Assembly: GCA_963775695.1 (NCBI GenBank)
Contig: CAVZJU010000003.1
Coordinates: forward strand, 141,050-205,049
Reading direction: 5' to 3'
Source: an uncultured Actinomycetes bacterium
GTDB taxonomy: Bacteria; Actinomycetota; Thermoleophilia; Gaiellales; Gaiellaceae
DNA length: 64,000 bases
A program made the position numbers and the translations under genes. Shown here piece by piece: positions 5,589 through 22,498 of this stretch. Positions within the stretch are counted from its first letter, which is position 1. Every line of letters starts with the position of its first letter. The notes below the pieces were generated by a model, which worked only from the letters and a program-made list of their open reading frames with translations, made no database searches and was not told the origin of the DNA.

Positions 5589-5635
5589 GGCGATGAGGCC
5601 CGCCGCCAACCGCCCGTGAGGCTGATGGCTTCTAC
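5589..5635 (+). promoter_or_regulatory. fluoride riboswitch (crcB motif), copy 1
   Basis: GGCGATGAGGCCCGCCGCCAACCGCCCGTGAGGCTGATGGCTTCTAC. Contains P1 (GGCG/CGCC), the AACCGCC block and GGCTGATGGCTTCTAC, with pseudoknot GAGGCC:GGCTTC. Closely resembles the Thermotoga petrophila crystallised aptamer as I recall it (GGCGAUGAGGCCCGCCCAAACUGCCCUGAAAAGGGCUGAUGGCCUCUAC). Confidence 0.85.
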
Positions 5636-5651
5636 GAACCAGGAGGTGCCT

Positions 5652-5888
5652 GTGATGCCGGGACGGGTTCGTGAGCCGAGGTACGACGTATCCCTCGAAC
5701 GCAAGATCGCCTGGGGAGCCGCGACGTTTGTCGCCGTCTCCGTCGTCGGGCTCCGGCTGGAGCCTGGTCTGCGCCTCGTGTGGATAGTGGCGCTGGTCTT
5801 CGGCGCGGGCGCGATCGGCACGATCGTGGGCGGCCGACTCGGCCGACCCACGATTCGGGGGCGGCGGTTGCGGCGCGGCTCGCGCTGA
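5652..5888 (+). CDS. small 2-TM membrane protein (unknown function)
   Basis: AGGAGG at 5641-5646, then GTG 5652 / ATG 5655. Product MPGRVREPRYDVSLERKIAWGAATFVAVSVVGLRLEPGLRLVWIVALVFGAGAIGTIVGG... First ORF after riboswitch 1. Confidence 0.5.
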   Translation: MMPGRVREPRYDVSLERKIAWGAATFVAVSVVGLRLEPGLRLVWIVALVFGAGAIGTIVGGRLGRPTIRGRRLRRGSR

Positions 5889-5898
5889 GCGCGTTTCG

Positions 5899-6363
5899 AT
5901 GAGTCTGCAGATCGAGATTCCTGGCAGGCCACCGCTCTCCCTGGACCATGTCGTCCTCGACGTCAACGGCACGCTCACCGATCGTGGGCGTCTCCTGGAC
6001 GGCGTCGGCGTTGCAGTCGAGCGGCTTCGGAGTCACGTCGGCGTCCTGCTCGTCTCCGCCGACACCTTCGGAACGCTGGAGCAGATCGGCGAGGATCTCG
6101 GCGTCGAGACGCGAACCGTTCGCGGTGGCGTGGACAAACGGCGGCTGGTGGAGGAGTTCGGCCCGGAACGCACGGCGGTGATCGGCAACGGGACGAACGA
6201 CGGTCCGGCGCTTGCGGCGGCGGCCGTCGGCTTGGCAGTGCTCGGACCCGAAGGGACGAGCGGAGATGCCGTGCGTGCCGCGGACGTTCTCTGCCGGTCG
6301 GTGGTGGAGGCAGTCGAGCTCCTTCTCGATCCGAACGCTCTGGCCGCCACCCTTCGGCCCTGA
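5899..6363 (+). CDS. HAD-superfamily protein, soluble P-type-ATPase-like (COG4087-like)
   Basis: LDVNGTLT (DKTGT-like phosphorylation motif) and GNGTNDGPAL (GDGxNDxPAL hinge-like). 154 aa, no TM segment. Confidence 0.8.
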   Translation: MSLQIEIPGRPPLSLDHVVLDVNGTLTDRGRLLDGVGVAVERLRSHVGVLLVSADTFGTLEQIGEDLGVETRTVRGGVDKRRLVEEFGPERTAVIGNGTNDGPALAAAAVGLAVLGPEGTSGDAVRAADVLCRSVVEAVELLLDPNALAATLRP

Positions 6364-6505
6364 GTTCGTGAGCTGGCCGGACAGCCCGAAGGAGTGCACC
6401 CGCTGCCGCTTCTCGCGCCCTTCGAGACGCCGTCGCGCGACGACGCCGGGTACGAGATCGTCGGCTGCTGCCGAAACCCCCGCATCGGCATGGACCTGTT
6501 CGCTT

Positions 6506-20034: not shown

Positions 20035-20080
20035 CGCGATGAGGCCCGCGCTCAACCGCCTTCGGGCTGATGGCTTCTGT
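20035..20080 (+). promoter_or_regulatory. fluoride riboswitch (crcB motif), copy 5
   Basis: CGCGATGAGGCCCGCGCTCAACCGCCTTCGGGCTGATGGCTTCTGT. Divergent from copy 4. Followed by GGGAGG and ATG 20115. Confidence 0.8.
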
Positions 20081-20114
20081 GTCTTCTTCGGGTTCGCTCC
20101 AGGGAGGCGGACGT

Positions 20115-20540
20115 ATGAGTCATCTCGCGCCGGATTCAGCCGGAAGTGCCCAGGTCGAGATCGACGTCGACCCGGCTGGGCTCGACGAGCTTCGCGGCCG
20201 GGCAGGCGACGCAGCACCGACCGCGGACGAGGACCTGCTCCGATACCTCGTGTACCTGGGCGCCGGCTACCTGGAGACCGAGGCAGTCTCTGCGGCTGCC
20301 CCGAGCGTCCACGAGGCCTATGCGCGCCTCGACCGCATGCATGCTGCCGTGGAGGGGCACTCGTCGGTCCTGAGTTTCCACTACGGCGAGTCGGCGCGAG
20401 AGTTCGCCGAAGAGGAGAGGGCACACGCGGCTCACGAGCGAAGCGCCGGAGCCTACGAGGGGCTTGTCGAGAAGCTCGAGGCGGAGATCGCAGCCCGGGA
20501 AAAGCGAGTCGTCAGGCTGAAACGAGCGCTCGAGCAATGA
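20115..20540 (+). CDS. hypothetical protein (acidic, C-terminal coiled-coil-like), first gene after riboswitch 5
   Basis: ATG 20115 is preceded by GGGAGGCGG. Product MSHLAPDSAGSAQVEIDVDPAGLDELRG...LVEKLEAEIAAREKRVVRLKRALEQ. High GC3. No family recognised. Confidence 0.6.
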   Translation: MSHLAPDSAGSAQVEIDVDPAGLDELRGRAGDAAPTADEDLLRYLVYLGAGYLETEAVSAAAPSVHEAYARLDRMHAAVEGHSSVLSFHYGESAREFAEEERAHAAHERSAGAYEGLVEKLEAEIAAREKRVVRLKRALEQ

Positions 20541-21067
20541 GGACATCGCTTCTGACGGCCGATCTCGACGAGTTCGAGCGGACCGGGGCCGACGTCGGAT
20601 CCGCGTTTGCCCGTGGCGCTCGCTCCCTCGGCTGCCGGCAACTCCACGAGCGCCTGCTTGAACCCTTCAGCACGGAGGCGGGGCTGACCGAGTTGGTCGA
20701 TCTCTATGCCGAGGCCTACGCCCGGATGCATCTGCTGCGGTTCGGCTACATGAGCAAGGCCGAGGCGTATGCCGAATCGAAGGAACGGTACGACGCCGTC
20801 GACGACGTGCTCTTCGACCTACGGCGGCACGTCGTCCCTGCTCTTCGAACCCGTCTGGCGGAGGTCAGGCAGCGTGAGGCGCAGCTCGTGGCGGAGGCCG
20901 AGGCGCGCGGCATCCCGACGGCTGAGATAGGCCCGATCGTCCCCGCGGATCGAGCGCAGGTGACGTCGGTTCGCCCAGGCGAAGGCCCTCCACAGCGCCG
21001 GACGCTTACACCCCTCGCTCCACGGCCTACGCGGCTGCAACGGTTGCGGCAACTGTTGCGTCGATGA
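20537..21067 (+). CDS. hypothetical protein
   Basis: ATG 20537 overlaps the upstream stop (ATGA). Product MRTSLLTADLDEFERTGADVGSAFARG...YMSKAEAYAESKERYDAVDDVLFDLRRHVVPALRTRLAEVRQREAQL. The C-terminal Arg/Pro-rich tail is uncertain. No family recognised. Confidence 0.55.
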   Translation: MRTSLLTADLDEFERTGADVGSAFARGARSLGCRQLHERLLEPFSTEAGLTELVDLYAEAYARMHLLRFGYMSKAEAYAESKERYDAVDDVLFDLRRHVVPALRTRLAEVRQREAQLVAEAEARGIPTAEIGPIVPADRAQVTSVRPGEGPPQRRTLTPLAPRPTRLQRLRQLLRR

Positions 21068-21175
21068 GCGGGCTTCCCGCAATGCGTCTCGGCGATCGTG
21101 CGGATGCACCGTCGGCTCCCTCGACCGAATGTTGAGCTCGGACACACGACAACGGCGTCACAGATGGAGGAGACG

Positions 21176-22498
21176 ATGAGCAAGATCAGCGCCATCCAGG
21201 CACGCGAGATCCTCGACTCGAGGGGGAACCCGACGATCGAGGTCCGCGTGATCCTCGAATCGGGGGCGATCGGGACGGCCGGCGTGCCTTCCGGCGCGTC
21301 GACCGGAGAGCACGAAGCGGTCGAGCTGCGTGATGGAGATGCGGCTCGCTACGGAGGCGAGGGCGTGGTCGAGGCGGTCCGGGGAGTCGAAGGCGAGATC
21401 GCAGCCGCAATCGTCGGGCTCGACGCAGCCGACCAGGCGACGCTCGACCGGACGCTGATCGAGCTCGACGGGACTCCGAACAAGGCCCGGCTCGGGGCGA
21501 ACGCGATCGTCGGCGCCTCGATTGCAGCCGCGAAAGCGGCGGCTTCCGAAGCGAACATGCCGCTCTACCGCTGGCTCGGCGGCGAGGAGGCGACCGTGCT
21601 GCCGGTACCGATGCTGAATGTGATCAACGGCGGCGCGCACGCGCAGAACTCGATCGACCTCCAGGAGTTCATGCTGGTGCCGGTCGGCGCCGGATCGTTC
21701 GCGGAGGCGATGCGGATTGCGGCCGAGGTCTATCACGCCCTCCGCGGGCTGCTGCACGAACGCGGCCTGGCGACGGGCGTCGGAGACGAGGGAGGATTCG
21801 CCCCCGACCTGCCGAGTTCGGAGGCTGCGATCCAGGCGATCCTCCAGGCGGCCGACCGCGCTGGCCACAGCACGCGTGTTGCGCTCGCTCTCGACCCGGC
21901 CGTCAGCGGGCTCTTCCGGGACGGTCGGTATCACCTGACCGGAGAGGGCCGCGAACTCGACACGGACGGGATGATCGCCATGTACGAGGACTTGGCCGAC
22001 CGGTATCCCATCCTGCTCCTCGAGGACGGGTTGGCCGAGAACGAGTGGGAGGGCTGGCGGGACTTGACGGATCGTCTCGGTGGCCGACTCGAGATCGTCG
22101 GCGACGACATCTTCGTCACCAACGTCGACCGGATCCAGCGTGGGATCGACGAGGGCGCCGGAAACTCCGTGCTGATCAAGCTCAACCAGATCGGCACGCT
22201 GACGGAGACGCTCGACGCGATCCACCTCGCGCACAGTCACGGGTACAGCACCGTCGTCTCCCATCGCTCCGGCGAGACAACCGACGCCACGATCGCCGAC
22301 CTCGCGGTCGCGCTGAACACCGGGCACATCAAGAGCGGTGCTCCGTGCCGCGGCGAGCGGCTCGCGAAGTACAACCGCTTGCTCGAGATCGAGGCCGAGC
22401 TCGGCGAGCGCGCTGTCTATCCGAGGTGGGACGCATTCCCGCGAGCATCCCGCTCTCGCCGCTCCAGCCCGCCCGCGGCCGTCCTGACGGCCGACTAG
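21176..22498 (+). CDS. eno: enolase (phosphopyruvate hydratase)
   Basis: [25 protein letters not shown]...[17 protein letters not shown]...[11 protein letters not shown]...[14 protein letters not shown]...[19 protein letters not shown] lies upstream of ATG 21176. The stop TAG 22496-22498 lies inside the IS481 target duplication. Confidence 0.95.

Follow-up and report, generated by a model that had tools for sequence, protein, structure and literature searches.

Fluoride riboswitches (Rfam family RF01734) precede a recurrent set of genes. In the original description of the crcB motif, mutS, transporters and formate hydrogen lyase were already listed as cargo (Weinberg 2010, PMC2864571), and a review names inorganic pyrophosphatase (PPase), HAD proteins, enolase, formate hydrogenlyase (FHL) and Na+/H+ antiporters (PMC11139923). 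Several such genes lie in GI3, a genomic island of E. cloacae FRM, where the operon ppaC-uspA-eno-gpmA-crcB-orf5249 is controlled by one fluoride riboswitch (PMC5533749). Here we analyze a 64,000-nucleotide stretch from a soil Gaiellaceae-like (Thermoleophilia) actinobacterium (contig CAVZJU010000003.1, positions 141,050 to 205,049; 70% G+C), referred to as the window, in which five fluoride aptamers within 14.5 kb stand one ahead of each of five transcription units (window 5.6-22.5 kb). An earlier reading of this sequence (the original prediction) had proposed a fluoride-stress island built of gene classes that were already riboswitch-associated, which the two sources on cargo bear out. In our assessment, the locus is likely to be a fluoride-responsive island with five aptamers that would act as translational ON switches, a non-redox ion-translocating complex as its core and crcB elsewhere in the genome.

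As described in PMC2864571 and PMC11139923 (the latter summarizing Baker 2012), the fluoride riboswitch regulon shares with the island its aptamer class, its cargo classes (MutS-like, FHL-like, PPase, enolase, HAD, universal stress protein or USP, antiporters and transporters) and its ON logic. The island differs in its five closely spaced aptamers with no exporter among the cargo in 64 kb, in one aptamer that carries a hairpin insertion in J1/2 and falls below the Rfam threshold, and in control that looks translational, whereas many known members have overlapping terminators. With GI3 it has in common the setting in a genomic island and a PPase, a USP and an enolase under fluoride riboswitch control. 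GI3, however, is one operon with one riboswitch and crcB inside, in contrast to five units, five aptamers and no crcB here, and it lacks three components found here: an energy-converting hydrogenase-related (Ehr)-like complex, a MutS-like pair with an MFS transporter, and a HAD-like protein.

Ehr complexes are defined in PMC6349859 (citing Marreiros 2013) as group 4 hydrogenase homologs without Ni/Fe-coordinating residues. The complex of the island resembles both Ehr and the E. coli Hyf/Hyc system (FHL, PDB 7z0s) in its HycD/HyfE-like subunit, two HyfB/D/F-like antiporter subunits, HycE-like large subunit and HycF/HycG-like small subunit, and the Ni/Fe ligands are missing as in Ehr. Unlike these systems, it has also lost proximal Fe-S ligands, has no redox partner in the operon and has a USP as obligatory partner, and it is under fluoride-aptamer control and often co-operonic with crcB. 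With Mrp (CPA3) antiporters (PMC7419157) and deactive complex I (PMC3464577) it shares homologous antiporter-like subunits with the conserved Glu/Lys/His ion path, and ion exchange without redox is the mode that we propose. In composition, however, it is Hyf-like (a peripheral module of large and small subunits and a NuoH-like subunit) rather than MrpA-G, and its transport is predicted. Since the gene classes were listed in PMC2864571 and PMC11139923 and the E. cloacae FRM island has been characterized by experiment, the island is not new in kind: it puts a known system to a genuine but mostly expected use, is unusually dense, and does not overturn current understanding. Two details are modestly new, namely the metal-free riboswitch-linked "FHL" complex with its tight USP/crcB association and the insertion-type aptamer missed by the Rfam threshold.

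Five aptamers and their units

Genes were called in the window from frame-wise GC content at codon positions 1, 2 and 3 together with open reading frames (ORFs), which were annotated with Pfam and NCBIfam. For aptamers, the curated RF01734 covariance model was used with its gathering score (GA) of 34 bits as the membership cut-off, and E-values were computed on the whole window. Four canonical aptamers score at or above the GA, with E-values of 6e-11 to 2e-6: A1 (5580-5641, plus strand, 47.1 bits) ahead of unit 1, A2 (10889-10950, minus strand, 50.2 bits) ahead of unit 2, A3 (11008-11070, plus strand, 38.0 bits) ahead of the gene stump of unit 3, and A5 (20026-20086, plus strand, 36.4 bits) ahead of unit 5. 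The fifth, A4 (19818-19890, minus strand), is an insertion-type aptamer ahead of unit 4. The aptamers are arranged as two divergent pairs, A2/A3 separated by 57 nt and A4/A5 by ~135 nt; units 4 and 2 form a tandem on the minus strand, which holds most island genes. Unit 1 (plus strand) comprises a 77-aa ORF with two predicted transmembrane (TM) segments, a 154-aa HAD/P-type-like protein and a small degenerate Cys-rich ORF; unit 2 (minus) two MutS-domain-V ATPases and an MFS transporter; unit 3 (plus) a NUDIX stump; unit 4 (minus) a five-gene Hyf-like complex, a USP and a family-I PPase; and unit 5 (plus) two lineage-specific proteins and enolase.

The distance from aptamer 3' end to first start codon is 14-29 nt in all five units, in agreement with the claim of the original prediction that every unit between 5.6 and 22.5 kb begins with a fluoride aptamer, and the five aptamer-led units in one island bear out the physical consolidation that it described. 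Its cargo list holds for enolase, family-I PPase, the HAD/P-type-ATPase-like protein, the MutS-like ATPases and the USP; the NUDIX entry, in contrast, is only a 39-41-aa fragment. The formate-hydrogenlyase-like complex that it listed does consist of homologous Hyf/Hyc-like subunits with two antiporter-like subunits, but the hydrogenase metal ligands are lost, so it is no hydrogenase.

A purine-rich Shine-Dalgarno (SD) sequence lies between each aptamer and its start codon; at A1, AGGAGG directly follows the 3' end and the start codon is 14 nt downstream. For A2 an anti-SD helix is predicted immediately ahead of the AUG at 10870, the pseudoknot 3' strand pairing there with the SD region (GCUUCUACC/GGUGGAAGC). 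No terminator-like elements were found after the aptamers; scans for intrinsic terminators (at shuffle level) and sigma-70 promoters (0 found) were uninformative. The SD placement, the A2 anti-SD helix and the lack of terminators suggest that switching is most likely translational rather than transcriptional.

To place these elements in context, related loci (designated by L numbers) were compared. Eighty loci (+/-10 kb) were taken from GTDB genomes by way of an alignment of the unit 4 large subunit, and all are from Thermoleophilia metagenome-assembled genomes (Gaiellaceae, Solirubrobacterales and Conexibacteraceae). They were scanned for aptamers with a covariance model built from the four canonical aptamers of the window; a regex-only finder, which gave 91 sites versus 148-179 by covariance model, served classification alone. 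Multi-aptamer neighborhoods prove to be common in Thermoleophilia, with 2-4 Rfam-grade matches per 21 kb in the relatives checked.

Aptamer A4 matches RF01734 at 19818-19885 on the minus strand in a permissive scan (21.4 bits, E=0.054), below the GA. Its architecture consists of P1, CCAG[AUGAAGCU]CUGG with the canonical 8-nt loop, a 20-nt inserted hairpin, and then AACC-P2-UGAUG-GCUUCUAG. All elements of the fold are thus recognizable: P1 with an AUGGnGUU-type 8-nt loop, J1/2 AACC, P2 GCC..GGC, UGAUG, and a pseudoknot between the P1 loop and the 3' tail GCUUCUAG. The insert occupies the poorly conserved 5' part of J1/2, between P1 and P2. The low score arises because covariance models take the GC-rich inserted hairpin for P1; we rejected that model-based alignment, as the conserved GAUGAAGCUC segment is found upstream of the hairpin, and a segment GAUG(A/G)AG.. 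occupies this upstream place in the window and in dozens of relatives.

The insertion architecture is common to 49 distinct homologous RNAs, whose inserts of 17-49 nt all fold stably and have no sequence conservation. With the insert spliced out, 36 distinct cores have 98.2% of cells in standard pairs, compared with 28-62% in slid registers and with 0 of 500 shuffles as high. Compensatory changes are seen in P1 (CG<->UA), in the pseudoknot (GC<->AU, 16 sequences) and in P2 (CG<->GC). Pairing at this level, with compensatory changes in all three helices, makes A4 a genuine fluoride aptamer by structure. Among seven relatives scanned with Rfam, no insertion-type copy passes the RF01734 GA, compared with 18 canonical copies that do. 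We found no insertion variants of the fluoride aptamer in the literature searched, the coverage of which is incomplete, so that novelty is unproven.

The unit 4 complex, its conserved operon and the exporters of relatives

Unit 4 opens with a 542-aa membrane subunit (18162-19790, minus strand, as are all genes of the unit; PF00146) that fuses a HycD/NuoH-like part to a C-terminal half matching the hydrogenase-4 membrane subunit HyfE; this fusion gene is the first gene after the aptamer in 48 loci. Next is antiporter-like subunit 1 (16697-18160, 487 aa; PF00361, 176 bits), which aligns to MBS/MBH subunits with canonical ELT, GxxTKAGxxPLHxWLPDAHxEAP and HxLNHAxxK motifs and keeps its TM5 Glu, TM7 Lys and TM8 His/Lys motifs. 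The latter motifs are also visible in the sequence of antiporter-like subunit 2 (12470-14440, 656 aa; PF00361, 149.7 bits), and the membrane arm of the complex looks functional by these residues. Between the two antiporter genes lie those for a HycE/NuoCD-like large subunit (15207-16700, 497 aa; PF00346/PF00374/PF00329), of Ehr type without NiFe ligands, and for a fused HycF/NuoI-like and NuoB/HycG-like small subunit (14437-15207; PF01058 and Fer4). A 145-aa USP (12033-12470; PF00582 in L001/L003; UspA/C-like) and the family-I PPase (11489-12001; PF00719, 157 bits) complete the unit.

NiFe ligation was judged by the four Cys of an N-terminal RxCGxCxxxH and a C-terminal DPCxxCxxH/R motif. The best PDB relative of the large subunit is E. 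coli HycE (7z0s_E, 1.5e-45); in that alignment the subunit reads ERVAGIASVAH where HycE has RVCGICGFAH, and its C-terminus, FIEHSFGLSPAGADR, is Cys-free. The 120 closest homologs all lack the NiFe cysteines and share the C-terminal motif, and a Cys-less large subunit is also found in most of the 150 best representatives from a library of 1.84 billion proteins. The small subunit has lost three of four proximal-cluster cysteines, with VDAGSDGAEEWEI, GTDACSGG and VPGSPP in place of the Cys motifs and one Cys left; VPGSPP recurs in 28 of 32 family members. One ferredoxin-type 4Fe-4S motif, CxxCxxC...CP, is kept in the HycF-like N-terminal part. As the losses are conserved across 120 large subunits and 28 of 32 small subunits, they are not decay.

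With both the NiFe Cys ligands and the proximal [4Fe-4S] ligands lost, the complex falls outside group 4 [NiFe] hydrogenases and FHL; judged by these residues, it is an FHL homolog that cannot function as a NiFe hydrogenase. A formate dehydrogenase partner and Hyp/HycI maturation genes are likewise absent from the operon, the scanned window ORFs, the genes of sibling contigs and the operons of 47 relatives; past ~24 kb of the window, the scan took in only some of the single-domain soluble ORFs. Group 4 hydrogenase homology, Mrp-like antiporter subunits and absent Ni/Fe-coordinating residues are the features of Ehr, and the complex is an Ehr-type and probably non-redox module for ion translocation. 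No specific link between Ehr, hydrogenase or Mrp and fluoride riboswitches emerged from the literature searched, whose incomplete coverage leaves novelty unproven.

The core operon, encoding the fused membrane subunit, an antiporter-like subunit, the large and small subunits, the second antiporter-like subunit and USP in this order, follows an aptamer in 47-48 of the 80 loci, and USP follows the complex in 46. The aptamer is of insertion type in 37 of 39 classifiable cases and canonical in two relatives. The 3' ends of the operon vary: crcB1-crcB2-DUF190, DUF190 alone, PPase (window and L005), enolase, MFS or IclR. Pairs of crcB occur in 17 of 80 loci: 15 close the complex operon as crcB1-crcB2(-DUF190), and two, those of the Gaiellaceae relatives L007 and L015, are its divergent neighbors on the opposite strand, the L015 pair having an aptamer of its own. 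That relatives carry crcB pairs in or beside the complex operon argues for crcB as part of this system; as 63 of 80 loci are without crcB within +/-10 kb, the link is frequent, not obligatory.

In the window, CrcB was sought as a PF02537 protein of ~120-130 aa with four TM segments and a GxxGGxTTFS(T) motif, and CLC-F as a Voltage_CLC (PF00654) membrane protein of ~400 aa. No CrcB was detected in the 64 kb by Pfam on multi-TM ORFs, by a six-frame search for the GGxTTFS motif or by phmmer with CrcB queries, and with a lineage hidden Markov model (HMM), for which 12 CrcB proteins from related loci were used, the lowest E-value in the window was 3.1, versus 1e-37 to 1e-50 for true CrcB in relatives. 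CLC-F is also absent from the 64 kb: every ORF with at least five predicted TM segments is assigned to another Pfam family (ABC-2, MFS, antiporter-like, CopC/D, Wzy_C, PMT_2, LPG-synthase or ferric-reductase-like). When the Gaiellaceae CrcB of L007 was searched against 5.8 billion proteins, none of the best 120 of >7,800 matches was tied to the contigs of the island, which is no evidence of absence.

The original prediction had stated that the window holds neither CrcB nor EriC-F/CLC-F, and our searches agree within the 64 kb. Its headline of an island with no recognizable fluoride exporter is accurate for the window but does not carry over to the organism, given the crcB1/crcB2 pair in or beside the complex operon in 17 of 80 related loci. 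Its transport candidates under aptamer control (the MFS protein, the 77-aa two-TM protein and the antiporter-like subunits) are all present, although the 77-aa protein is a poor exporter candidate. Because only ~15% of Fluc channels are riboswitch-controlled (PMC11139923), crcB elsewhere is the default expectation, and comparison with relatives suggests that a crcB pair most likely lies elsewhere in the genome, outside the window.

Accessory units and surroundings

The first gene of unit 1, TM77 (5655-5888, plus strand), has no Pfam or NCBIfam family, is called as a 77-aa gene in L001/L002, and has homologs only in L001, L002 and L005 among the related loci. A role for TM77 as a half-size, Fluc-like exporter was weighed and rejected: neither a CrcB motif nor an HMM signal is present, and the protein is lineage-restricted and deleted in the sibling strain L003. 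The 154-aa HAD/soluble P-type-ATPase-like protein that follows (5899-6363, plus strand; DVNGTLT motif; PF00702, 27.2 bits) has NCBIfam matches to the P/N-domain region of P-type ATPases and homologs in at least 14 related loci. That it might be a frameshifted gene from an assembly error was also rejected, as it is a complete small protein kept in relatives. The small orf58 (6394-6570, plus strand) belongs to an unannotated Cys-rich family of ~60-85 aa found in six loci, with the motif WPYSPxxCPxCR...GYEIVGFCRHPRIAMDLF...CPCF, which recurs inside aptamer-controlled operons (L012:3410-3613, L038:2514-2744, L024:16530-16757, L050:18805-19023, L013:18324-18578); the window copy is degenerate, without the N-terminal CxxC and part of the C-terminal motif.

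Unit 2, on the minus strand, begins with two MutS-like ATPases consisting of domain V only (9317-10870, PF00488, 60 bits; 7794-9320, PF00488, 67.8 bits). They are neither MutS1 nor MutS2, since domain V alone matches, at 47-73 bits versus NCBIfam equivalog cut-offs of 400-642. Third is the 420-aa MFS transporter (6506-7768; PF07690, 101.5 bits), with only weak NCBIfam subfamily matches. MutS-like genes take first place behind an aptamer 24 times, in 25 loci, and a MutS-like pair followed by MFS is found in 13.

Unit 3 consists of a truncated NUDIX ORF of 39-41 aa (11085-11210, plus strand), an N-terminal fragment that ends ...LPGGRVKRWE* inside the NUDIX box, wanting the complete box GX5EX7REUXEEXGU and the ~130-aa fold of a NUDIX hydrolase; no continuation after LPGGRVKRWE was found in any frame. 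The same 39-aa ORF is called in two other assemblies, L002 and L003, so the truncation is real and not an assembly error, and unit 3 is a decayed relic. A full-length, aptamer-linked NUDIX gene (162 aa, PF00293) is present in L041. The ~280 nt from the stump to the PPase stop (11211-11488) have no convincing coding signal and are probably debris of the rearrangement that truncated NUDIX. A 166-aa minus-strand ORF (10934-11434) has no Pfam match and overlaps aptamer A3.

Unit 5, on the plus strand, encodes hyp141 (20115-20540) and hyp176 (20537-21067), neither with a Pfam or NCBIfam family and both with homologs only in this lineage (sibling contigs) and in L005, followed by a 440-aa enolase starting MSKISAIQ (21176-22498; PF00113, 369 bits, and PF03952). 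The longest enolase ORF starts at 21098; the 440-aa call is that of L003. At the right edge of the island lies an IS481-family transposase (22583-23554, plus strand; rve/LZ_Tnp_IS481).

A closer look at near relatives shows segments of the island coming and going. Segment 5562-5897 (336 bp, exactly A1 and TM77) is cleanly missing from the 97-99% identical sibling contig L003, an indel that leaves the HAD-like gene there without a riboswitch. The segment with A3 and the NUDIX stump (~10984-11483) is missing from L005, the closest GTDB relative at 84-88% nucleotide identity, as is the 2.5-kb segment with enolase and IS481 (21082-23561), which suggests that this terminal enolase copy of unit 5 was recruited (or lost) in association with the IS. 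From these segments we take unit 4, frequently with unit 2, as the conserved core, and units 1, 3 and 5 as recent dispensable accretions.

The island is found on ENA metagenome contigs of 1,437,869, 171,802 and 26,312 bp. The near-identical contigs L001 and L002 (ENA ERZ25039463) have many split genes (NuoH-like, MutS-like, enolase), typical of long-read indel errors, and L002 has an identity of only 92% with 235 gap positions. The left flank of the island carries ABC-2 transporter genes: a DrrA-like ABC ATPase and two ABC-2 permeases (2978-5510, plus strand) lie directly upstream of A1 without an aptamer of their own, a position kept in L001-L003. The right flank is the IS481 transposase. Outside the island and without an aptamer are a 778-aa CopC-CopD fusion protein (24051-26387, plus strand), a GCS2-type glutamate-cysteine ligase (27843-29180, plus strand) and a ferric-reductase-like membrane protein beside an ApbE flavin transferase (61138-63131, minus strand), all ordinary stress or redox genes.

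Recurrent aptamer cargo in the related loci also includes MutS-like pairs, DUF6062, the HAD/P-type-like protein, full-length NUDIX, dynamin-like GTPase, MoxR/DUF58/DUF4129 and ABC ATPase. DUF6062 proteins (Cys-rich, 224-465 aa) are encoded first after a fluoride aptamer in nine cases (aptamers L037:6609-6665, minus strand, and L073:5768-5838, plus strand, and seven other loci), a cargo that to our knowledge is not discussed in the fluoride literature. In some Solirubrobacterales, fluoride aptamers have MoxR AAA+ ATPase/DUF58/DUF4129 modules (L038:15780-19538, L014:16970-19469, L025:18541-21224) and dynamin-like GTPases (L037:3301-5172, L050:4087-5928) downstream of them.

Proposed mechanism, alternatives and meaning

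In the mechanism that we propose, a rise in cytoplasmic fluoride would stabilize the aptamer pseudoknot through Mg-F binding, and the stabilized pseudoknot would hold the 3' strand (GGCUUCU) away from the adjacent SD region, allowing translation to start; each aptamer, most likely a translational ON switch, would gate one unit. The ancient core would be unit 4, a metal-center-free (Ehr-type) complex with two intact Mrp/Nuo-type antiporter subunits and USP, followed by the PPase. Acting as a non-redox cation/proton translocator, the complex would reshape delta-pH and membrane potential under fluoride stress, which could lessen HF trapping and increase the driving force for fluoride exit through Fluc channels. 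Enolase and family-I PPase are classic fluoride-inhibited enzymes. The accessory units would supply extra copies of these Mg-dependent enzymes and a HAD/P-type-like phosphatase, and unit 2 would contribute its MutS-like ATPase pair and MFS transporter.

Precedents exist for several steps. Na+/H+ antiporters rank second in frequency among riboswitch cargo, acidification of the cell interior is an established adaptation (PMC11139923), and complex I, once it is uncoupled from the redox domain, works as a Na+/H+ antiporter (PMC3464577); together with the intact antiporter subunits, the lost metal centers and the co-operonic crcB of relatives, these argue for a role of the complex in cation/proton exchange. 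An eno-uspA-ppaC fragment alone restores growth of E. cloacae FRM on 1,000 mg/L fluoride (PMC5533749), which argues that extra enolase and PPase copies raise tolerance. We put forward only tentatively, at somewhat less than even odds, that the complex serves fluoride stress alone, as a non-redox ion translocator working alongside CrcB, yet we find this considerably likelier than an island that manages without an exporter of known type.

Several points weigh against the proposed island. There is no crcB in 64 kb and none has been located elsewhere in the genome, and most related loci lack it within the range surveyed. The anti-SD pairing is clear only for A2 and weaker or alternative in A1, A3, A4 and A5. 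The organism is uncultured and known from metagenome contigs, and switching is read from sequence. The small-subunit CxxCxxC...CP motif may leave room for some redox or sensing role, and we infer the ion specificity and transport direction of the complex throughout.

The lack of CrcB and CLC-F genes in the window also fits an organism without Fluc or CLC-F, in which fluoride is expelled or kept out by the unit 2 MFS or the Hyf-like complex with USP, or is tolerated through enzyme over-supply and pH adjustment. The recurrence of aptamer, MutS-like pair and MFS in 13 loci and the lack of a close characterized subfamily for this MFS speak for such an idea, as does the strong tolerance conferred by non-exporter genes alone in E. 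cloacae (PMC5533749). We nonetheless regard it as unlikely: the view covers 64 kb and the contig of the island alone is 1.44 Mb, in the same-family relatives L007 and L015 and in 15 others the complex operon contains or adjoins a crcB pair, the majority of Flucs have no riboswitch link (PMC11139923), no MFS fluoride exporter is known to us, and TM77 is dispensable between strains. If true, it would mean a new functional class of complex-I-like machine and would explain the presence of "formate hydrogenlyase" in the fluoride regulon since 2010. It is similarly doubtful that the complex is a redox enzyme after all, using its remaining 4Fe-4S motif and a further partner, as proposed for FDH-Ehr or Mbx, for alternative energy conservation when fluoride blocks glycolysis. 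Coupling of ion translocation to redox reactions in the cytoplasm is generally suspected for Ehr complexes (PMC6349859), one cluster motif is kept, and a review ties FHL to a metabolic shift under fluoride (PMC11139923); the ligands of the NiFe site and the proximal (N2-type) cluster are, however, lost family-wide, and the constant partner in the window operon and 47 relatives is USP, with no dehydrogenase, NuoEFG-like or Hyp maturation genes.

The remaining alternatives concern the aptamers, which in our proposal respond to fluoride in all five units. A score below the RF01734 GA, an additional hairpin of 17-49 nt and a close bond to one operon type would suit an A4 class that senses another ligand, or is a mere structured leader, with the complex and USP answering another stress. 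This seems to us improbable to a still greater degree, since removal of the insert, which sits in the least conserved part of J1/2, leaves all conserved core elements canonical (AUGnnGnn loop, AACC, P2, UGAUG and a pseudoknot with GC<->AU covariation), the same operon type contains crcB pairs in 15 relatives, and a canonical aptamer takes the same position in two. Least probable of all, and very unlikely, is that aptamers and cargo are decaying leftovers without a current regulatory role. The NUDIX ORF cut short behind an intact aptamer, the orf58 copy without its Cys motifs, the deletion of A1 and TM77 in L003, the absence of A3 and enolase from L005, and IS481 at the edge would fit such decay; yet the Rfam GA is surpassed by four aptamers, no invariant core nucleotide has been lost, and the pseudoknot, P1 and P2 show covariation among relatives. 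Large ORFs are without exception intact, their GC3 high and their Pfam scores strong, conservation of the core operon extends over the class, and only unit 3 and one small ORF show decay. The original prediction had allowed for aptamers that are non-functional relics; judged by conservation, covariation and correct placement in dozens of relatives, the aptamers as a set are not, and unit 3 alone is a relic unit.

The island of aptamer-led units with an ion-translocating core thus remains the reading that we prefer. Insertion-type aptamers below the Rfam gathering score mean that standard annotation under-counts fluoride riboswitches and misses exactly this complex operon, and the strain-level gain and loss of aptamer-and-gene cassettes shows how such regulons assemble. 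Comparative context turns an old annotation puzzle, "FHL" in the fluoride regulon, into testable statements: in Thermoleophilia at least, riboswitch-linked "formate hydrogenlyase" genes encode a complex that is unable to bind NiFe or the proximal Fe-S cluster and has intact antiporter subunits, and its constant USP and frequent crcB1-crcB2-DUF190 company points to ion/pH homeostasis, not hydrogen metabolism, as its role in fluoride defense.

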